From a virus (taxonomy: Duplodnaviria > Heunggongvirae > Uroviricota > Caudoviricetes), in the IMG/VR virus record IMGVR_UViG_2571042053_000015: a stretch of DNA of 11,688 bases; one strand, written 5' to 3'. Below, one piece after another: positions 2,514 through 11,688 of the stretch (the stretch's first letter is position 1; every line of letters begins with the position of its first letter). The notes beneath the pieces were generated by a model. The model searched no databases, was not told the origin of the DNA, and saw only the letters and a list, made by a program, of their open reading frames with translations. A program made the position numbers and the translations under genes.

Positions 2514-2670
2514 GCCGGTCCTGCTGTCCGCCGAGCAGATGCAGGCCATACGCAACATTCAGGAACGTGAACGCCAGCGCTCCAATCTCGGCGTCGCTCC
2601 CACCGTTCACCAGATTGCCCGCGGCCTCATGGCTAAGGCTCTGGCCTCACTGGCAAGCGAGGGCGTGTAA
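2494..2670 (+). CDS. Small hypothetical protein (58 aa), internal start of the 2401-2670 ORF
   Basis: ATG at 2494 preceded by GGAG (2482-2485) at 8-nt spacing. Its TAA stop (2668-2670) overlaps the ATG of the next gene (TAATG), indicating translational coupling. The longer 2401 start lacks a Shine-Dalgarno. Confidence 0.5.
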   Translation: MRKPNVKPVLLSAEQMQAIRNIQERERQRSNLGVAPTVHQIARGLMAKALASLASEGV

Positions 2671-3341
2671 TGGGCGCCATTCACCAGATATATGAGCAGG
2701 AAATGTTCTATAACTGGATAGGCGATGGTAAACGATGTGTAGCATTCCACGAAGCGGGCCATGCAGTAGCCGCATGGCTTATTCGCTTAGATATGCAGGT
2801 TATCGCCATTATGGATGAATCCGGCTACGTTGCTGGCGAACATGTACATGAAGCCCAGTGTTTGGGCGTTGTTAAACACGGCATAATCCACAACCACGAT
2901 CTCAGGCGTTTGCGGGAGAGTAAATCTGGTGTAGTTGGGCACGATGGCAAAGTTATCCCTTTCATACGCTACTACGCGGAAGGTATAAAACGCGATGCAA
3001 CAAAGGCCGCTTTTGTAGCCCTCGCTGGACCAGTAAGCGAAGCCCTTTACGAAAATAACGAAATTTTCAATAAAAAGTATTCACTCCCTCACCGCTATGA
3101 CATGGCTAACGTAAATGACATGCTCGATTTAATATGTGCCACGGATAAGCAAATTAACAGGAAGTTAATGCTTTCTAAACTTGTTGAAAAGACCAAATTC
3201 CTCATGACTCAATACTGGCCGGAAGTAGGAAAAATAGCGCATTTGCTTGAGCGGGATAACATTGTTAATGGGCGCGATGTTAGCTCGCTAATCGGCCTCA
3301 ACGTCATTGACCGGGCAACGCCATTTTTGCTGGCGGAATAA
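2670..3341 (+). CDS. Stand-alone zinc-metallopeptidase-domain protein, FtsH-like (peptidase M41-type HEAGH motif)
   Basis: 223-aa ORF. Residues 24-36 VAFHEAGHAVAAW carry an HExxH zinc-binding motif in the FtsH-like context (FtsH has AYHEAGHAI). No AAA+ ATPase or transmembrane region precedes it. Start codon overlaps the upstream stop. Confidence 0.75.
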   Translation: MGAIHQIYEQEMFYNWIGDGKRCVAFHEAGHAVAAWLIRLDMQVIAIMDESGYVAGEHVHEAQCLGVVKHGIIHNHDLRRLRESKSGVVGHDGKVIPFIRYYAEGIKRDATKAAFVALAGPVSEALYENNEIFNKKYSLPHRYDMANVNDMLDLICATDKQINRKLMLSKLVEKTKFLMTQYWPEVGKIAHLLERDNIVNGRDVSSLIGLNVIDRATPFLLAE

Positions 3342-3417: not shown

Positions 3418-4476
3418 ATGATGAATAATTTAATCAATCGCATTGCTTTAACCTTTCTAGCGTTAGTACTCACAGGCTGCACTGCGGGGAAAATCGATCC
3501 CGCAAAAGCGTTAACACAAATGCATATCGTCAAAAGTGATGACTATAAGAAGCGCCCCGGCTGGCCTGCGTTGGTTCGTCTGGGTACTGACGATTGTGAG
3601 ACATACAAAAGTGGCGGCGGTAGCCTCTTTAAGTGGGACGGGCTGACGTGCAACGACAAAAGCATTATCCTGGCGGTTAATAGCAAACCACAGACCATTC
3701 CAGTGTTCTACGCTGCTTACCATGAATACGGGAGCTATGGGGTCGGGGAACTATCCAATTTTGACAATAGCACCCGAACAGGTGAGGAAGCCTCGAAGAT
3801 TCTGGTTAACCTGACCACAGTATTGAACAATCCGGCAAAAGTTGACGCTATCTATGCTGACTATGAAAAGGATCGTTGGAGCATGGGACTTGGTACAGTC
3901 AACGAAAGCGATTTTAAAAAGAGCCTGGCTACTTTTGCTCAGGAACGGGATAAGCTTGCCTCTGAATACCATAAATTACGTGACGCAAACCAAAAGAGAT
4001 ACCTAGCTGAACGGGACGAACGAATCAAACGTGAGAAAGAAGAGGCCATGGCCTCTGAAAAAACGATTGATCTCGTGTTATGGCAGAATCCAACAGTTGA
4101 GCAACAGATGGTTGTTGACGCTCTGCACACTATTAAATTCACAATAAGAAACGATGGCGTGGCATACGCTAACGGTCGCCGATTTATGTCAATTGCCGGG
4201 ATGGAATATCTCAGGAATAGCCTAGCTCTGAGTATGGAGTCATGTTCAGACGCTGGGGCATATGTTGGTGATACGGCATTAAATCGCGCATGTATTCAGG
4301 GCTTGGCGAGGAACATTGTTGAGTGGGGGAAAACCGCCAACGACCGTTCTATTTCAGACAGAGCATGGAACGCAGCCGCAATGGATGGCAGCATTAACTA
4401 CAACCCAATCAAGTATGAAATCCTGTTTTCACATTGGGCAGGAATGGCCCGTGTCTACTCTGCTCGTAGATATTAA
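3418..4476 (+). CDS. Predicted lipoprotein (352 aa) with a central coiled-coil / charged segment; function unknown
   Basis: N-terminus MMNNLINRIALTFLALVLTGC has a hydrophobic signal peptide and lipobox L-T-G-C (Cys21). Charged, helix-prone segment ERDKLASEYHKLRDANQKRYLAERDERIKREKEEA. Gene is visibly AT-rich compared with int and primase. Followed by a terminator. Confidence 0.75.
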   Translation: MMNNLINRIALTFLALVLTGCTAGKIDPAKALTQMHIVKSDDYKKRPGWPALVRLGTDDCETYKSGGGSLFKWDGLTCNDKSIILAVNSKPQTIPVFYAAYHEYGSYGVGELSNFDNSTRTGEEASKILVNLTTVLNNPAKVDAIYADYEKDRWSMGLGTVNESDFKKSLATFAQERDKLASEYHKLRDANQKRYLAERDERIKREKEEAMASEKTIDLVLWQNPTVEQQMVVDALHTIKFTIRNDGVAYANGRRFMSIAGMEYLRNSLALSMESCSDAGAYVGDTALNRACIQGLARNIVEWGKTANDRSISDRAWNAAAMDGSINYNPIKYEILFSHWAGMARVYSARRY

Positions 4477-4618: not shown

Positions 4619-5731
4619 CTATTTAACTAAACGTAAATGTGACGGGCGTATCCCCGATTCCTGGGTACTCGATTTTCCACCATTGATAGCTTCCATAAAG
4701 AAGCTGTTACTGAAAGTAAGTGCACTCGCTTCGTCCGCTGGTAACCTCAACTGCTCGAGAATATCTCCCCTTTTAACGCCTTTGCTGCGTAGGGCTGAAA
4801 ACACTTTATCCAGCACTAATGACTTTTCACGTTCAGCAATCCCTTGAGGCTCACTCGTACGATATCCACGGCGAGCAAGTTCTATCGATAGCTGTCGATA
4901 ATGCCATTCGGTAGATAAACCGACATCAAACGTACGGCGCACCAAAGCCGCCAATGATACCCGCCAGTTCTTTTTTAACGAGATGAGTAGATCAAGCGAT
5001 GGCATTCTTGGCACTAAAGCTAAAATACTACGCTCAGGCATCAAAAAGGCCGATGCGAATCGATCTGCATCCTGCTCAGCTTGGCGGCCGTTGTTAGTTG
5101 AATGTTTATGGAGAACCAAGTGCCCCAGTTCATGAGCTGCATCGAATCGACTACGCTCCGGCGTTTTCATTGTATTCAAAAGCACAAAAGGTTTTTCATC
5201 CATCCAGAACGAAAAGGCGTCTACTTCAATACAATTTTCCGCGAGAGAGAACACACGGACCCCATTAGCTTCAAGAAGATGGACCATGTTAGAGATGGAT
5301 AATTCACCTATCCCCCAACTTTCTCTAACCACGCGAGCAGCTCGCTCAGGCTCAGAATAACCATCGAAACTACAATCAGGTACATTAGGTTTAGGAAGCT
5401 TAAACTGCCCGTCAATCCAAGCTGATAGCTCTTGCGCGAGCTTTCCGGCTCCGAGTGCTGAGTCCCTTTTCTGTGCCGTCAACTTTGTCATTGCACGGAA
5501 ACTAACGGCTTCTGGCGACAGAGTAGGTACATCCCTGTCGAGGAAGAACTCAATCGGATAGCCCAGAACAGCAGAAATCCGTTCCATGGTATCGCTGGCT
5601 ATGGCATCAAAAATCCCTGCTTTCTCGTAATTCGAAATCGTCTTACTAGTCAATTCTGTAGCTTCAGCTAAAGCTCTTTGTGTCAGGCCTCTCCGTTCTC
5701 TGGCTATACGTAAACGCTCTGAATTAAACAT
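4619..5731 (-). CDS. Fused XRE-family HTH / ImmA-IrrE (M78-like) zinc-metallopeptidase protein
   Basis: 370-aa ORF. N-terminal HTH (RLRIARERRGLTQRALAEATELTSKTISNYEKA, typical XRE / Cro-C1 helix-turn-helix). Central HExxH in the ImmA/IrrE context (RFDAAHELGHLVLHKH). Second gene of a two-gene - strand operon, 9 nt after the upstream stop. Confidence 0.85.
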   Translation of the reverse strand: MFNSERLRIARERRGLTQRALAEATELTSKTISNYEKAGIFDAIASDTMERISAVLGYPIEFFLDRDVPTLSPEAVSFRAMTKLTAQKRDSALGAGKLAQELSAWIDGQFKLPKPNVPDCSFDGYSEPERAARVVRESWGIGELSISNMVHLLEANGVRVFSLAENCIEVDAFSFWMDEKPFVLLNTMKTPERSRFDAAHELGHLVLHKHSTNNGRQAEQDADRFASAFLMPERSILALVPRMPSLDLLISLKKNWRVSLAALVRRTFDVGLSTEWHYRQLSIELARRGYRTSEPQGIAEREKSLVLDKVFSALRSKGVKRGDILEQLRLPADEASALTFSNSFFMEAINGGKSSTQESGIRPSHLRLVK

Positions 5732-5740
5732 GGTGCATAT

Positions 5741-6460
5741 TTAGCCTGTTTTTAAAATGTCGAGATCGATATCCGGTGTAAACTGCGGTACATCACCGTT
5801 CTGAACAATAGGGTCAGGTTGATGAGGAGCAATAATTAAACGTGTGGAGAAGGCATTAACTACATTCTTGTTATTGTATGAAATCGGGCGTGAAAGCTCA
5901 GCTCGGATCCCCACGCGCTCATCCCCGTCAATTTCATAAAAATCGTAAAGTAAAAACCATAAGTCCAGTCCGATTTTATTCGGTAGCAGTGGTATAACAT
6001 CACCTTCCGGCATGTCTAAATCCAGCTTAAGCTGGCTATCATCCAGGATAAGCTCACCCTGACCCGGGGTGTTATTATGGATTAACCCCATCAGCTCACA
6101 AGTAAAATCACCTTTCTTCATGCGAGACTCAGGAAATCCATGAACCAAACCTGTCTGATCACACCCCCGGCAGAGGTAAAGGGCAACTTTATCACTTACA
6201 GTCAGTTCAACATTTCGCAGGGACAGACGTTTGTAGCCTTTCGGAGCCAGAATGTCGCGGGCTGCACTCACCCCCTCACCATAGAAATATTGCCCACGTG
6301 AGGTCTTGGGGTGATTCTGAGTCGTCGAATAACGACCAGACAAGCCACGCTCAAGAATACGCCTGAGATCACTTTGGCTCAGATTCAGGGACTGCAGGTA
6401 GGATTCAACATCGTCAGGATCTGCCAAAACAATGGTTTTTGCGAGATTATGAGAGTACAT
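5741..6460 (-). CDS. Hypothetical protein (239 aa), first gene of the - strand two-gene operon; candidate effector / toxin partner
   Basis: ORF with a good Shine-Dalgarno (AAGAGG about 9 nt upstream of the ATG on the - strand). No motif recognised by eye. Immediately upstream of the HTH-peptidase gene. Confidence 0.7.
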   Translation of the reverse strand: MYSHNLAKTIVLADPDDVESYLQSLNLSQSDLRRILERGLSGRYSTTQNHPKTSRGQYFYGEGVSAARDILAPKGYKRLSLRNVELTVSDKVALYLCRGCDQTGLVHGFPESRMKKGDFTCELMGLIHNNTPGQGELILDDSQLKLDLDMPEGDVIPLLPNKIGLDLWFLLYDFYEIDGDERVGIRAELSRPISYNNKNVVNAFSTRLIIAPHQPDPIVQNGDVPQFTPDIDLDILKTG

Positions 6461-7590: not shown

Positions 7591-7803
7591 ATGAAATCGC
7601 AAACTTTCACCTTTCCCACCAATGGCAACGCACGAGCCAAACAAGTGGCGCACTATCTTGGAGTGCATATCAGCACCGTATGGCGCTATGCAAAACGTCC
7701 TGATTTTCCAAAACCCCACCAGTTAACCGACGGCGTGACCGTCTTTGACGCCGCAGCTATTCGCCAATGGAACAAGCAAAAAACCGGGGGTGAGAATGCT
7801 TAA
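7591..7803 (+). CDS. alpA: AlpA-family (P4 Vis-like) transcriptional regulator / excisionase-like protein
   Basis: 70-aa protein from the internal ATG at 7591 (AGGTAA Shine-Dalgarno just upstream). Sequence QVAHYLGVHISTVWRYAKRPDFPKPHQLTDGVTVFDAAAIRQW matches the AlpA / Vis winged-HTH pattern. Position between int and primase matches P4-like elements. Confidence 0.8.
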   Translation: MKSQTFTFPTNGNARAKQVAHYLGVHISTVWRYAKRPDFPKPHQLTDGVTVFDAAAIRQWNKQKTGGENA

Positions 7804-7857
7804 CGCGACCGTGAGCACACCCTGCACGACAGCCGTTCGATCTCCATTGTTGGCGGG

Positions 7858-8052
7858 TCAGGCTTTCGGCTCAATACCCAGCCGCTGGAGTTCTTTGCGC
7901 CCCAAGGTTTTCATCCAATTAGCTAAACTCATACCTGCATCTCGTGCGGCGGCCTCGAATTGCTCTTTCAATTCTGGGGCGATCCTCACTTGGAAAGCTG
8001 GTGCCTTTCCCCTGCCTTTGGGCTGTTTATCACGCTGTATTACTGTTGACAT
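7858..8052 (-). CDS. Ribbon-helix-helix (Arc / CopG-like) DNA-binding protein, candidate repressor of the replication operon
   Basis: 64-aa product from the internal ATG (MSTVIQRDK...). PAFQVRIAPELKEQFEAAARDAGMSLANWMKTLGRKEL shows the beta-strand / helix / helix pattern of RHH proteins. Divergent from the operon starting at 8187. The longer 8103 start would place the operator-like palindromes inside the coding region. Confidence 0.6.
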   Translation of the reverse strand: MSTVIQRDKQPKGRGKAPAFQVRIAPELKEQFEAAARDAGMSLANWMKTLGRKELQRLGIEPKA

Positions 8053-8108
8053 GTATGTACCTATTAAACTAAGATTCAAATCAATAGGTACGCACCTTAA
8101 CATGTTAA
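8045..8108. promoter_or_regulatory. Divergent control region with operator-like inverted repeats
   Basis: Consensus-like TTGACA at 8045-8050. Perfect 9-bp inverted repeat GTACCTATT (8057-8065) / AATAGGTAC (8083-8091) with a 17-bp spacer. Perfect 12-bp palindrome TTAACATGTTAA (8097-8108). Confidence 0.35.
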
Positions 8109-8122
8109 GGTCAGAAAAGACA

Positions 8123-8156
8123 ACGCCCCGTATGTGTTGCGAGCACTACGGGGCGT
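8123..8156. other. GC-rich hairpin (10-bp perfect stem ACGCCCCGTA / TACGGGGCGT, 14-nt loop) in the leader of the small-gene / primase operon
   Basis: Verified inverted repeat. On the - strand it is followed by TGTCTTTTCTG (terminator-like); on the + strand it sits about 30 nt upstream of the 8187 start. Could be an attenuator, terminator or RNA element. Confidence 0.4.
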
Positions 8157-8186
8157 CTAACCAACAACGTTACGGAGACTAACGCT

Positions 8187-8387
8187 ATGGCTAAGCCGCA
8201 GTGTACCCAAACTCACCCCAAATATCAGTATCGTTTTATGGCGCTCGATCGCGCTGACCGCCAGGCAAAACCCTGCAAAATCATTGTTGAGGCCACCAGC
8301 GAGCACGAAGCGCGTAAAGTGCTGGCTCCTCACTACATCCTGTCACTGTCCGCCGTTTTGCCAGTTCAGGAGGTGAGCCATGTTTAA
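8187..8387 (+). CDS. Small hypothetical protein (66 aa) of the P4-like replication / regulatory module
   Basis: ATG with GGAG 9 nt upstream. First of five tightly coupled small ORFs preceding the primase. Resemblance to small Icd-like / Ash-like proteins of P4-family prophages is only a vague recollection, not verified. Confidence 0.55.
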   Translation: MAKPQCTQTHPKYQYRFMALDRADRQAKPCKIIVEATSEHEARKVLAPHYILSLSAVLPVQEVSHV

Positions 8388-8574
8388 CGTCATTGTCACG
8401 GTCATCTATCACTTTTCGGGAACGATCCGTCGTTTTGCTATTCCGGAACGTTTCAATAATCGTGAGCTCGCAGAGAAAGCAGCGCAGCAGTTAACCCATA
8501 CCAGCTATCTGGATGATGGAGTGAGCAGAATTGTGACCCACGCGGCGGAAGTAGTGGAGGTGCGCCATGTATGA
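8380..8574 (+). CDS. Small hypothetical protein (64 aa)
   Basis: Strong Shine-Dalgarno AGGAGG 6 nt upstream of the ATG. 8-nt overlap with the upstream gene (ATGTTTAA). Confidence 0.55.
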   Translation: MFNVIVTVIYHFSGTIRRFAIPERFNNRELAEKAAQQLTHTSYLDDGVSRIVTHAAEVVEVRHV

Positions 8575-8755
8575 CGCCTACCTGAACCCAAAGGACGCAC
8601 TCCGTCCGATCGCCGTTGCACTCGAGGCTGCGCAGTTTATCGCGCTTGACCCGGAGAATACCGATTTAGCCCATGAGCTGATCGCCTGGGCACTTGAAAC
8701 AGCCGCGCGTGCCTCAGCTGCGCAACGTAACACCCCGGAGGGTAAAAATGCTTAA
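8567..8755 (+). CDS. Small hypothetical protein (62 aa)
   Basis: GGAGG 6 nt upstream of the ATG. 8-nt overlap with the upstream gene (ATGTATGA). Confidence 0.5.
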   Translation: MYDAYLNPKDALRPIAVALEAAQFIALDPENTDLAHELIAWALETAARASAAQRNTPEGKNA

Positions 8756-9056
8756 TCTCAATACATGGAATCTTTTCACGCTGCCGCTGAACGGTGGCGC
8801 AGCTGAGACAGCGCCGGACGATCTGCGTCTGCTGGCCGCTGTGGGGGACGAGGCTCGCAACGACTACCTGCGCGGTGTAAGCGCCATCGGCAATCTGATC
8901 TTCTGGGCATGTGATAACCCCAACTACACCGACCATAAAGCTGACCTGCCAGCGCTGGGCGCATTCCTGAAACATACCGCTGATATGGCGCGCGCTGCCG
9001 AATTCATGGCGGGACATCTGGACTCACTGGCTGACGGCAAAGAGGGAGGCAAATAA
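8748..9056 (+). CDS. Hypothetical protein (102 aa), internal start of the 8694-9056 ORF
   Basis: ATG at 8748 preceded by GGAGGG at about 6-nt spacing; 8-nt overlap with the upstream gene (ATGCTTAA). The 8694 start has no Shine-Dalgarno and lies inside the upstream gene. Confidence 0.55.
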   Translation: MLNLNTWNLFTLPLNGGAAETAPDDLRLLAAVGDEARNDYLRGVSAIGNLIFWACDNPNYTDHKADLPALGAFLKHTADMARAAEFMAGHLDSLADGKEGGK

Positions 9057-9277
9057 TGCCACGCAAACATCGCTCATCAAGCAACCTGATCAAATTAATG
9101 GAACGCCAGAAAGGTATAGGGCGCGACGATATCCAGATCGCAGATAATCGCCCTACATTCATGCCGTACGAGCCGAACGGAACCTACGCCACAAACCGCC
9201 ATACCCGCCGTATGCTACGCAAGCTCCACGGCATCCAGGCAAAAAGAATGTGTGATCTGAAAGGAGGTCAGAAATGA
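9056..9277 (+). CDS. Small basic hypothetical protein (73 aa)
   Basis: GAGGGAGG Shine-Dalgarno upstream. Start overlaps the upstream stop (TAATG) and its stop overlaps the primase start (ATGA). Arg/Lys-rich. Confidence 0.55.
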   Translation: MPRKHRSSSNLIKLMERQKGIGRDDIQIADNRPTFMPYEPNGTYATNRHTRRMLRKLHGIQAKRMCDLKGGQK

Positions 9278-11688
9278 TTGGATTCGATCACCTGATGGAG
9301 CAGGGGCAGAAACGCACCCCTGCTCGTTTTACTGCAAATAGCTTTTCTGACCTGTGCAACGCTATTCTATCGCATCGTGTGCAAATTTCCATCACCCCAG
9401 AAATGACAGATGAAGAGCGACGTAAGGAAAAGCAGAAACTGTACTGGTTCTCGGCAACTACCCAGCAGGACGGGCAGCGACGTAAACCCGAAAACATGGC
9501 ACCGTGTGCTTTCGGTATGCTGGACATTGACGGCAGCACTCCCGGTGCAATCACAGCACTTGTACAGGTGTTCCGGCGATACTCAATGCTGGTGTACCAG
9601 ACGGCCAGCTATACGGCGGATGAACCTCGTCTGCGTATTGTGTGCGAGCTTTCCCGAGCGGTTGAATCTGACTACCGCCGAGCGACAGGCGAATCCATAG
9701 AAACTTTGTTGATGCAGGAGGCTGGATTCTCATTCGCCAGCCTGGCGGATAAGAAAGCACGCTGGGAGAACGGCAGCGATTATGTTGTCTTTGACCGCAA
9801 TGTATACGGCGCTCAAAGCTATTGCTACTGTCCACACTCTGGAGCGAAAGCCCAGAATTACGCGGGCGCGGTAATCGACGTAGGGGCGTTACCGGAACCC
9901 GCCCAGCTACCAGCGAAGGCGGCCAAAAGCAAGGCAAAGAAACAGCGCCAGCGTGACGCCGCGGCGGTAATAGATGCTGATTTTGACGATCTGAGCGCCG
10001 GACCGGATAACTTCCTTATCGCCGACCTGCGCAGCGCACTCTGGTTTCCCTCCATGCTGCAAAAGGCATGGGACAATGGGGCGTGGATTGAGCAGGGCTA
10101 CCGCCTTGCATCTCTCAAAGGCACCGATTTTGAGGACGACGCGCGGCAGCTGTGGGTCGAGTGGTCATTGACCGCGGCGGATGGCTGGCCTGATGAAGAA
10201 CTTGATGAAGTCGCAGCACAACGCTGGGATGGTCTCGCCCCTGACAAAACCAGCTATAAAGCTATTTTTACTGATGCTCAGGCGCAGGGGTGGAATAATC
10301 CGAGCACATGGCGAGCAAAGGCCGCGTACATTGAGAAAATGGCCCCCAGCACACGCGGTGAACTGCTAGCGCAATATTACGGCAACGTATGCCTGAAAGC
10401 TGATGGTAACATGGTTTATCACTATACCGGGCAGGGGTGGGAGCACATCGCCGATGCCGAGTTGCGCCGCCAGCTTTCGCATATTTTCAAAGATAACGGG
10501 GTCCCCTTTACACCGTACGAGGTTAAAAGCGCGATTGAGGCTATGGGAATGCTTCTGCCTTTAATGGGAGAAACTCCTCGTAACCTGATTGGCTTTGCCA
10601 ACGGCGTTTATGATCTCGAGGCGCAGCGATTCCGCCCCCACTGCCCAGACGATTGGCTGACCAGCCATAACGGCGTTGAATACACGCAACCGGTTAAAGG
10701 CGAAACCCTGAAAAACAATGCCCCAAACTTCTGGCGCTGGCTGCATCATTCCGCAGGGGGCGACTTCGACAAAATGGAGAGAATCAAAGCCGCTCTGTAT
10801 ATGGTGCTGGCAAACCGCTACGACTGGCAACTGTTCATCGAGGTTACCGGTGCTGGTGGCAGTGGTAAAAGCGTGTTCACGGGTATTGCACGTATGCTGA
10901 CGGGCGAACTACACGCCACCAGCGGCACAATGGAGGACATGGACACCGCGCGCGAACGCGCATCTTTTGTCGGCAAAAGCCTGATCACCCTACCCGACCA
11001 AGCAACATATACGGGTTCCGGGCCGGGTATCAAGGCTATAACGGGCGGCGACGTGGTAAGGATCGACCCAAAGCACGAAAAGCCATTCCATACGGTTATT
11101 CGCGCCGTTGTCATCGCAACAAACAACGAACCTATGCGTTTCACCGAACGACAAGGCGGGATATCGCGGCGCCGGGTTATTTTCCCGTTTAACCATGAAG
11201 TGCCGGAGGCGGAACGTGATCCCCATCTGCTCGATAAAATTAAAGCCGAACTGCCGGTAATCGTCCGTGGTCTGCTGATTGACTTCGAACAGCCAGGCAA
11301 AGCCAAATCGCTACTTATCGCGCAGCGTGATTCAGCGGAAGCGCTGCAGGTGAAGAACGATAACGACCCGATGTATGGCTTTTGCTCTTACCTGCTAGGT
11401 TTGCCGAATCCCGAGGGCATGTACATGGGCGATGGGCGCATGGCGCGAGAGCCACGCATCTACCTCTATCATGCTTATCTGGCCTATCTGGAAGCCTACG
11501 GTTATCAGAGAACCCCCACCCTGCCAAAGTTCAGCGGAGATTTACGGGACACGCTCAAAGCCTTTGGTATTACTCTGGACAGTAAAAAGAGTAAAAAGGG
11601 CAAAAGATATAACGTCAATTTGTCTGACAGGGCACAAGAATGGCTGGGAGAAGACGAACTCTCAGCTGTGCCCGACACATTGCAGTAA
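9274..11688 (+). CDS. P4-alpha-like DNA primase / helicase (phage-plasmid primase, P4 family, P-loop NTPase C-terminal region)
   Basis: 804-aa ORF with a strong Shine-Dalgarno (AGGAGG) and TAA at 11686-11688. Walker A P-loop VTGAGGSGKSVF (about nt 10846-10880). Size and position after alpA and the small genes fit the primase-helicase of P4-like satellites / PICIs. Recalled from family knowledge, not searched. Confidence 0.85.
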   Translation: MIGFDHLMEQGQKRTPARFTANSFSDLCNAILSHRVQISITPEMTDEERRKEKQKLYWFSATTQQDGQRRKPENMAPCAFGMLDIDGSTPGAITALVQVFRRYSMLVYQTASYTADEPRLRIVCELSRAVESDYRRATGESIETLLMQEAGFSFASLADKKARWENGSDYVVFDRNVYGAQSYCYCPHSGAKAQNYAGAVIDVGALPEPAQLPAKAAKSKAKKQRQRDAAAVIDADFDDLSAGPDNFLIADLRSALWFPSMLQKAWDNGAWIEQGYRLASLKGTDFEDDARQLWVEWSLTAADGWPDEELDEVAAQRWDGLAPDKTSYKAIFTDAQAQGWNNPSTWRAKAAYIEKMAPSTRGELLAQYYGNVCLKADGNMVYHYTGQGWEHIADAELRRQLSHIFKDNGVPFTPYEVKSAIEAMGMLLPLMGETPRNLIGFANGVYDLEAQRFRPHCPDDWLTSHNGVEYTQPVKGETLKNNAPNFWRWLHHSAGGDFDKMERIKAALYMVLANRYDWQLFIEVTGAGGSGKSVFTGIARMLTGELHATSGTMEDMDTARERASFVGKSLITLPDQATYTGSGPGIKAITGGDVVRIDPKHEKPFHTVIRAVVIATNNEPMRFTERQGGISRRRVIFPFNHEVPEAERDPHLLDKIKAELPVIVRGLLIDFEQPGKAKSLLIAQRDSAEALQVKNDNDPMYGFCSYLLGLPNPEGMYMGDGRMAREPRIYLYHAYLAYLEAYGYQRTPTLPKFSGDLRDTLKAFGITLDSKKSKKGKRYNVNLSDRAQEWLGEDELSAVPDTLQ

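Follow-up and report, generated by a model that had tools for sequence, protein, structure and literature searches.

A Kil-led array of overlapping small genes upstream of the primase in a putative P4/PICI-family island

Why should five small genes be joined to one another and to a primase gene by overlapping start and stop codons, three times in succession by the same 8 nt? The question is raised by positions 8187-9277 of the IMG/VR virus record IMGVR_UViG_2571042053_000015 (Caudoviricetes), a stretch of 11,688 nucleotides that was analysed at its full length and is called the window here. An initial annotation had described the array and its ATGNNTRA overlaps in a P4-like setting and had seen no recognisable motif in any of the five products. 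We favor the view that the locus makes up the promoter-proximal portion of the early ('left', replication) operon of a 12.1-kb integrative island of the family of P4 and the phage-inducible chromosomal islands (PICIs). A homologue of P4 Kil would lead the operon, accessory genes would follow it and ribosomes would be handed on to the primase. Taken as a whole we consider this view probable.

The array comprises six co-directional cistrons on the plus strand: ORF1 (8187-8387, 66 aa), ORF2 (8380-8574, 64 aa), ORF3 (8567-8755, 62 aa), ORF4 (8748-9056, 102 aa counted from its ATG), ORF5 (9056-9277, 73 aa) and, as the last cistron of the chain, a primase/helicase gene (9274-11688, 804 aa). They are joined by overlaps of -8, -8, -8, -1 and -4 nt. 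The respective junctions are ATGTTTAA at 8380-8387, ATGTATGA at 8567-8574, ATGCTTAA at 8748-8755, TAATG at 9054-9058 and ATGA at 9274-9277. Every downstream start is preceded at a distance of 5-8 nt by a Shine-Dalgarno match of 5-7 nt that lies within the upstream gene, in order GGAGGTG, GGAGGTG, GGAGG, a GGAGG-type site and AGGAGGT. The three 8-nt overlaps, the TAATG and ATGA overlaps and the internal Shine-Dalgarno sites initially reported are thus borne out by the sequence and by RefSeq coordinates; in the E. coli chromosome NZ_CP027388.1, which is 100% identical, PGAP calls all five small genes at the very same positions. By itself the octamer ATGNNTRA shows no enrichment in the window (18 occurrences versus 13.4 expected; 22 of 200 shuffles reach 18), so the signal of the array is the placement of the octamer at consecutive gene boundaries. 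An extended 19-nt junction, GGAGGTGNGCCATGTNTRA, is present in two copies versus 0.00 expected. Genome-wide the overlap classes of E. coli rank -4 > -1 > -8, i.e. -8 is the third commonest, and 707 of 2,987 unidirectional gene pairs in total are spaced by -8 to +6 nt (PMC10666635). Given this ranking, three -8 junctions in succession are not expected by chance. The array and its overlap geometry are real and non-random.

What leads the array? Judged by its sequence, ORF1 is a homologue of P4 Kil in the Icd-like family. At 64.8 bits (cutoff 25; E 5.3e-18) it matches the NCBIfam Icd-like model NF033153, and it matches phrog_1743 with E 9e-19. P4 Kil, taken from the P4 sequence, is 44% identical over 59 aa (66 vs 65 aa in length; BLASTP, E 5e-16), and gp32 of N15 is 37% identical. 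RefSeq already names ORF1 Icd-like. The initial statement that the products lack a recognisable motif therefore fails for ORF1 and stands for ORF2 to ORF5. A dN/dS of 0.09-0.28 indicates purifying selection on ORF1, and its final codons Q-E-V-S-H-V encode the Shine-Dalgarno sequence and the ATG of ORF2. ORF1 is the first cistron after a promoter-like site at 8046-8075, where the promoter is a predicted one. P1 Icd, the namesake of the family, binds FtsZ and blocks cell division (PMC11897509); it was not recovered by tblastn at E ≤ 1e-3. Two other forms of Kil came to light. P0050 of Shigella boydii (78 aa) has the N-terminus of Kil fused in frame to the C-terminus of ORF3 via the F[M/I]ALD stretch that the two share and is a deletion derivative of the array. 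Locus L086 holds a second Kil/Icd-like paralogue in one array, a 97-aa protein encoded by the third gene after Kil.

Is the overlap geometry peculiar to this island? The gene chain was walked from Kil to the first ORF of at least 450 aa in 80 IMG/VR loci with Kil homologues and in 26 loci with the junction pattern. The caller, a heuristic of our own, agreed with the genes called by GenBank, RefSeq and NCBI in P4, the window and L004. In P4 itself kil and epsilon overlap by -8 as GTGCGTAA, and epsilon and orf151 by -8 as ATGTTTGA. The junction after Kil was -8 in 72, -4 in 11 and -11 in one of 84 loci, i.e. the window, P4, L003 and L004 together with the 80 IMG/VR loci. It was -8 in front of 10 of 13 different types of downstream gene with GGAGGTG kept in nearly all, and the 3' end of kil nearly always reads GGAGGTG-N5-ATGNNTRA irrespective of the gene that follows. 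This connector is met again between one cassette and the next. The DNA at this end is (G)TTCAGGAGGTG-NN-CC-ATG-NNT-RA in the lineage of the window and GGAGGTGTCCCGTGCGTAA in P4; its conservation entails a Kil tail of the form P-V-x-E-V-x-x-x before the stop. Between Kil and the primase 35 distinct architectures were found, many of which are P4 variants. Their junctions were -8 in 61 cases, -4 in 30, -1 in 5, -11 in 2 and other in 40. In Kil-led arrays -8 outnumbers -4, opposite to the ranking seen across the genome. Directly before the primase -4 was found in 13 of the 35 architectures and -8 never. The clearest relative is L091, where Kil is followed by an ORF2-like protein (63 aa, 41% identity), a 63-aa protein and an ORF4-like protein (102 aa, 34%, phrog_6805), each joined by -8, and then by the primase at -4; the architecture is alike and three -8 junctions are found at far greater divergence. 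The start/stop overlaps are an inherited hallmark of the P4-type satellite family, neither accidental nor a new mechanism.

The junctions can also be read as overlaps without a regulatory role, i.e. as scars of cassette exchange and compaction, where the junction is a patch of homology and the genes are translated independently. Such an origin would fit ORF2, which is an exact 187-nt insertion/deletion between two copies of GGAGGTGNGCCATGT, is absent from L004, L005 and L006 and behaves as an optional cassette. It would also fit the 24-nt junction GTTCAGGAGGTGnnCCATGnnTRA, which ends Kil-unrelated proteins as well. These are found in L098/L111, L102, L104 and L108 with the tails VQEVGHG, VQEVNHA, VQEVAHG and VQEVVHG, respectively, and a -8 ORF comes after each of them. 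These cases point to a portable connector. The unoccluded ribosome-binding sites (see below) point in the same direction. On the other hand, the stop stays exactly 5 nt past the start even where junctions have diverged, e.g. in ATGGTTAA and ATGGCTAA of L007 and in ATGTTTGA of P4, and scars leave unexplained why -4 recurs before the primase and -8 never does. We consider it improbable that the overlaps are scars and nothing else.

Next to be asked is what the genes between Kil and the primase encode. The slot after Kil is hypervariable and holds at least 12 unrelated small proteins, mostly acidic and helical-looking. ORF2 to ORF5 matched no Pfam, NCBIfam or PADLOC family, and tblastn against 50,697 phage records returned nothing. 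Comparison with PDB sequences gave empty or compositional matches, the hits of ORF3 being designed helical repeats only. Neither BLASTP nor hhalign detected similarity of ORF2 to ORF5 to epsilon, orf151 or Cnr of P4, and ORF2 to ORF4 were accordingly ruled out as epsilon or orf151. For ORF5 as a Cnr (DUF5375) there was in addition no Pfam match at E ≤ 1; the position before the primase is all that the two have in common. The initial expectation that some of the small proteins would be uncharacterised is thus correct for four of the five, ORF2 to ORF5: the profile searches it had proposed, which might have placed all five in characterised P4 families, left these four unmatched.

A fold of beta-beta-alpha-beta-beta is predicted for ORF2 (AF2, single-sequence, pLDDT 78.5). 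The model resembles many uncharacterised phage proteins of about 60 aa, none at significance. Homologues of ORF2 are encoded in L091, in the same slot after Kil (41% identity, E 2e-10), and in L094 (31%, E 7e-5). Comparison with the only close orthologue yields three differing sites, which leaves dN/dS without power. A query of ORF2 and ORF3 in concatenation returned two proteins. We also considered ORF2 as a diverged duplicate of Kil because of a like EVxHV tail and a strand/helix pattern seen by eye. This was provisionally rejected as the hhalign probability is 0.8% and the Icd-like model gave no match; the tail common to ORF1 and ORF2 is a consequence of the dual-coded junction. ORF3 is acidic (pI 4.6) with a helical look, judged by eye. 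Its orthologues in L003 to L006 give a dN/dS of 0.15-0.35, and it invariably adjoins ORF4 in related arrays. ORF4 is likewise acidic (pI 4.7) and is predicted to form a long helical hairpin (AlphaFold/AF2, pLDDT 86). Its family is marked by the turn motif AIGNLxFWAxxNxxY and has a weak, distant link to phrog_6805. The family amounts to 43 clusters at 90% identity, whose named sources are all Enterobacterales bar one metagenome bin; an exhaustive search gave 20 matches among 1.84e9 representatives. The dN/dS of ORF4 is 0.09-0.20. An assignment of ORF4 to WXG100/EsxA was discarded, the likeness being that of helical hairpins in general (Foldseek E ≥ 0.14, 13-14% identity) with the W outside the WxG turn. 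ORF5 is very basic (pI 11.0) with a dN/dS of 0.11, and its stop overlaps the primase start in the ATGA. It forms six clusters, which include Salmonella and Xenorhabdus (58% identity). In L004 to L006 its slot is taken by a basic protein of 60 aa (pI 11.5) without detectable homology to the 73-aa ORF5.

Could some of these ORFs, ORF2 above all, not be genes at all? ORF2 is absent from several relatives, its dN/dS is powerless, and an antisense ORF of 126 aa exists at 8637-9017. Yet the antisense ORF is truncated in L003, PGAP calls all five small genes, and ORF1, ORF3, ORF4 and ORF5 are under purifying selection with dN/dS values of 0.09-0.35. ORF2 itself has a 7-nt Shine-Dalgarno sequence, a confident small predicted fold and the two homologues at 41 and 31% identity, the former in the equivalent slot of a distant array. 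We regard it as extremely improbable that any of the five is spurious. ORF2 to ORF5 are real, lineage-restricted accessory proteins that match no characterised family.

The position of these proteins raises the possibility that ORF2 to ORF4 manipulate a helper phage, i.e. that they are anti-repressors or derepressors equivalent to P4 epsilon and to Ant of P1 and N15, diversified according to the repressor of each helper. In all three characterised systems an anti-repressor is among the genes that overlap an Icd/Kil-like leader: P4 epsilon, N15 gp31-gp30 Ant and P1 ant1/2 (PMC8198154). The hypervariability of the slot after Kil and the acidity of ORF3 and ORF4 are in line with such a role. However, neither sequence nor profile comparison linked the ORFs to epsilon or to anti-repressor families, the fold matches of the ORFs are generic, and the island is devoid of sid, delta and psu and has no known helper. 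We treat this role as possible, on the doubtful side.

A different emphasis would make the array mainly a Kil-based module of abortive infection or superinfection exclusion, a proposal that is compatible with the operon we favor. An incoming phage protein would de-repress the operon, and the Icd-like protein, helped by the small proteins and the primase, would arrest or kill the cell. The precedent is the ECOR61 locus, which causes programmed cell death upon expression of phage orf24 (Silas et al., bioRxiv 10.1101/2023.04.06.535777). All six of its genes are needed, the effector is probably the Icd-like protein, and suppressor insertions map to the Icd-like gene and to the pair of small genes that comes next (bioRxiv 10.1101/2023.04.06.535777). 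The coordinates of these three genes in QOYT01000045.1 (9309-9675, 9131-9317 and 8940-9132) correspond to overlaps of -8 and -1 if the starts are 0-based. Binding of P1 Icd to FtsZ (PMC11897509) and the RosmerTA defence pair of the island add to the case. Against it, the Icd-like protein of ECOR61 is lengthened by a long N-terminal extension while ORF1, at 66 aa, stands alone, and ORF2 to ORF5 gave no PADLOC match. Overall we judge it unlikely that this is the chief role of the array.

Both proposals can be combined with the connector. The GGAGGTG-N5-ATG-NNT-RA element, with protein tails in EVxH[V/A/G] before the stop, would be a standardised docking site at which P4/PICI-type satellites exchange small accessory genes by recombination over short homology and still preserve the hand-over of ribosomes. 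The cassettes behind Kil (ORF2 to ORF4) would be a fast-evolving set of helper-phage or host-defence effectors and would make up, jointly with Kil, a phage-sensing growth-arrest module. We offer this as a speculation that is rather more likely wrong than right by a wide measure.

We return to the favored view of an early operon and ask how it is entered. Upstream of the array lies alpA (7591-7803, plus strand), which encodes an AlpA-family regulator/excisionase (Pfam Phage_AlpA, E 5e-7; a helix-turn-helix (HTH) regulator in RefSeq). A fourth ATGNNTRA junction, again ATGCTTAA, is found at 7796-7803, where the ATG of the next ORF overlaps the stop of alpA by -8. The ORF that starts here inside alpA is an eta-like frame of 128 codons (7796-8182, plus strand). 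The copy in the window is cut short by a 2-nt indel, with its end 4 nt ahead of the kil ATG. In L003 to L006 it is stop-free into kil (0 stops versus 6-10 in the other frames; the window has 1), and the frame of Kil stays open over 214-449 upstream codons in eight of eight relatives. P4 has eta coupled to its alpA homologue, with a constitutive promoter inside eta (PMC10111431). The -8 junction at alpA and the frame open into kil in relatives match the nested eta/kil arrangement of P4. The N-terminal part of the eta-like frame had no PHROG family match. The frame runs antisense to a ribbon-helix-helix (RHH) gene with coincident third codon positions, and it may be selected for translation rather than for its product.

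The RHH gene (Arc/HicB-like; 7858-8103, minus strand, with the RefSeq start at 8052) is divergent from the operon promoter. It matches Arc-like repressors in PHROG (E 2.3e-5), HicB in Pfam (E 0.0015) and TraJ in NCBIfam (E 1.3e-4), is conserved in L003 and L004 and, on the basis of these matches, encodes a probable repressor. The operon promoter is predicted as a sigma-70-like TTGACA-18-TAAGAT at 8046-8075 on the plus strand (10 of 12 matches). Its TTGACA is conserved and its position is analogous to that of PLE in P4. The palindrome GTACCTAT (8057-8064)-N19-ATAGGTAC (8084-8091) brackets the -10 box. In L007 to L009 the arms vary yet stay complementary, and the palindrome is a candidate operator, probably that of the divergent RHH protein.

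Thirty nucleotides before the ATG of kil, at 8123-8156 of the plus strand, a leader hairpin was predicted by RNAalifold from eight Kil lineages that are C4-less; five of its 16 predicted pairs show compensatory changes. The leader that contains it (8080-8200) folds at -36.6 kcal/mol with a z of -2.1. The hairpin is followed by GUCURACCA up to 8165 without a U-tract, has no Rfam family match and sits where P4 has the region of its CI RNA. As a positive control, Rfam searches found C4 (CI RNA), isrK and c4-a1b1 all upstream of kil in P4. C4 and isrK were found in P4-type loci, too, with C4 in the P4-type loci L014 and L020. In the window C4, isrK and c4-a1b1 are absent even at E ≤ 10, and the close relatives are likewise without a match. 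A C4/CI RNA upstream of kil was rejected on these grounds. The lineage without the CI/C4 immunity RNA probably relies on the divergent RHH repressor and the conserved leader hairpin.

What would the overlaps do in such an operon? With the spacing in nt given in parentheses, the genes follow one another as int ... alpA (-8) eta-like frame (+4) kil (-8) ORF2 (-8) ORF3 (-8) ORF4 (-1) ORF5 (-4) primase. Ribosomes that enter on kil, or on the eta-like frame after read-through from alpA, would be passed from cistron to cistron. The continuous ribosome cover on the transcript would keep Rho from terminating before the primase, and the output of the primase and of the accessory genes would thus depend on translation of the first ORF. 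In P4, translation of eta/kil prevents premature termination, at timm (PMC10111431). Coupling by termination-reinitiation requires overlaps or gaps below about 20 nt (PMC10666635); the junctions of the window lie within -8 to +6 nt and have the Shine-Dalgarno sequence inside the upstream gene. From this we infer translational coupling, which the initial annotation had taken to be strict, and we hold that ribosome coupling probably protects the operon from polarity.

Several observations weigh against the model as a whole. Overlaps of -8 re-initiate less efficiently than those of -4 or -1 (PMC10666635). The predicted accessibility of the ribosome-binding sites is average, at 0.29-0.56 versus a background of 0.48 ± 0.12. 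The prediction thus lends no support to the idea that strict coupling is based on an occlusion of these sites, and strong, unoccluded Shine-Dalgarno sites could permit independent initiation. The stretches richer in C than in G at 8160-8290 (ORF1) and 9120-9260 (ORF5) are compositional hints of Rho loading only; the latter, on the plus strand in the 3' half of ORF5 just ahead of the primase start, has C at 0.35-0.41 and G at 0.18-0.22. The comparative data have their own bounds: in the second set of loci the first junction is -8 by construction, these loci having been found through the junction pattern, and the chain calls in relatives rest on our own heuristic, validated only by the P4 record of GenBank, by RefSeq and by the NCBI calls of four loci. 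Finally, the element is without the RNA immunity that gates translation of kil in P4 and P1. In P1 icd is gated by a C4-type antisense RNA. The order of that operon is c4-icd-ant (PMC8198154).

The surroundings of the array agree with the P4-like context proposed at the outset: the island has an integrase, an AlpA and a primase whose C-terminal domain is of the P4 family. The window covers nearly all of an island of 12,082 bp that lies between yicC and dinD in E. coli. Copies of a direct repeat of 19 nt, TTGTACCCAAGACTGTACC, are found at 4423-4441 and 16505-16523 of locus L001. They lie 12,082 bp apart, just beyond both ends of the window, and are probable attL and attR sites of the island. 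A single gene of the island, an ORF of 87 aa, lies beyond the window. By domain search the integrase is a P4-type tyrosine integrase, and int, alpA and pri are co-directional as in Gram-negative PICIs, elements of 10-20 kb with att repeats at their ends. An int-alpA RNA motif (Rfam RF02996; 6575-6642, plus strand; 46.5 bits versus a gathering score of 35.8) precedes a 275-aa ORF and alpA and is present in the C4-less loci L003 to L006, too. PADLOC identified a RosmerTA anti-phage toxin-antitoxin pair at 4619-6460 on the minus strand, composed of RmrA (370 aa, HTH and Peptidase_M78; E 7e-149) and RmrT (239 aa; E 1e-52). The other cargo includes a 223-aa protein with a HEAGH motif (2670-3341, plus strand) and weak matches to Peptidase_M41 and M50B, and a 352-aa protein with a lipoprotein-like N-terminus (LTGC; 3418-4476, plus strand). 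Among the other island ORFs in the window there was no Psu or Ogr/Delta-type Pfam match, and sid, delta and psu were not found.

The primase belongs to TIGR01613 (109.9 bits versus a cutoff of 108.7) and phrog_864 (E 3e-102) and carries the Pfam domains D5_N, DUF5906 and Pox_D5. Relatives are encoded at 5995-8742 in L003, 7163-9382 in L004 and 6934-9681 in L006, and the primase query against genome contigs returned one locus. The N-terminal region of about 360 aa is conserved (58% identity to L003, the sole relative scored) and the C-terminal half is exchanged: the forms of 804 and 795 aa are of the D5/P4 type and the form of 739 aa has DUF927 in a Pfam scan of these three forms. Two primases of 915 aa have the N-terminal region of the 739-aa form. 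The array was present in 17 of 5,426 complete E. coli genomes, all at ≥95% identity and with EPEC E2348/69 among the carriers, and the five exact protein sequences each recur on public contigs, with counts from about 800 to over 1,000.

The array is an instance of a known design, and the mechanism itself is not new. Modestly new are the four unannotated small-protein families, the -8 junctions as a signature of Kil-led operons, the 3' junction of kil as a connector for variable cassettes, and a lineage that lacks C4 but has a conserved hairpin in its leader. The island is found in pathogenic E. coli, i.e. in EPEC E2348/69, O55:H7, O45:H2 and other clinical isolates, and Enterobacterales contigs with its proteins number in the hundreds to thousands. 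The four families sit beside a probable toxin (ORF1), where P4, P1 and N15 keep anti-repressors. The -8 junctions together with the kil 3' connector provide a simple sequence handle to catalogue unannotated genes of satellites, and the operon is a concrete, testable model in which satellites tie the expression of their primase to the translation of a leader gene of a toxic type.

How does the locus compare with known systems? It is closest in plan to the left operon of P4 (eta/kil - epsilon - orf151 - cnr - alpha). In both a Kil homologue comes first after an internal promoter, nested behind a frame coupled to an alpA homologue. Both have GGAGGTG inside kil and -8 overlaps at the junction of kil with the next gene and of that gene with its successor, and both operons end in a primase with the P4-type C-terminal domain on an island of about 12 kb with a P4-type integrase. 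The slots that P4 gives to the anti-repressor epsilon, to orf151 and to the copy-number regulator Cnr are held here by ORF2 to ORF5. In contrast to P4, the window has no homologues of epsilon, orf151 or Cnr, no sid, delta or psu and no match to the CI/C4, isrK and seqA RNAs, and the N-terminal domain of its primase differs from that of alpha. All six cistrons of the window overlap, unlike those of P4, where gaps of +135 and +14 occur, and the eta-like frame is broken by the 2-nt indel in the window copy.

The death locus of ECOR61 likewise has an Icd-like gene followed by genes for proteins of about 60 aa and a DNA primase, with -8 and -1 overlaps under the 0-based reading of its starts. It differs by the long N-terminal extension of its Icd-like protein, and death triggered by orf24 is known for the ECOR61 locus alone. 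The modules of P1 (c4-icd-ant1/2) and N15 (gp32-gp31-gp30 Ant) share a small Icd/Kil-like leader with overlapping genes next to it, the junctions of N15 being -4 and -4; unlike the array they end in an anti-repressor and not in a primase. With respect to RNA immunity P4 carries the C4-family CI RNA and P1 a C4-type antisense RNA, and no such RNA was found in the window.

Gram-negative PICIs, the int-alpA-pri satellites of Enterobacteriaceae, resemble the island in the common direction of these three genes, the 12.1 kb between direct repeats, the int-alpA RNA motif and the RosmerTA cargo. The island differs from them in having no capsid or packaging genes and no known helper phage. Finally, the gene pairs with termination-reinitiation described by Huber et al. 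(2019/2023) show the same -8, -4 and -1 overlaps and a Shine-Dalgarno sequence in the upstream gene, within its last 15 nt. The -8 overlap ranks third there and is the dominant class here.

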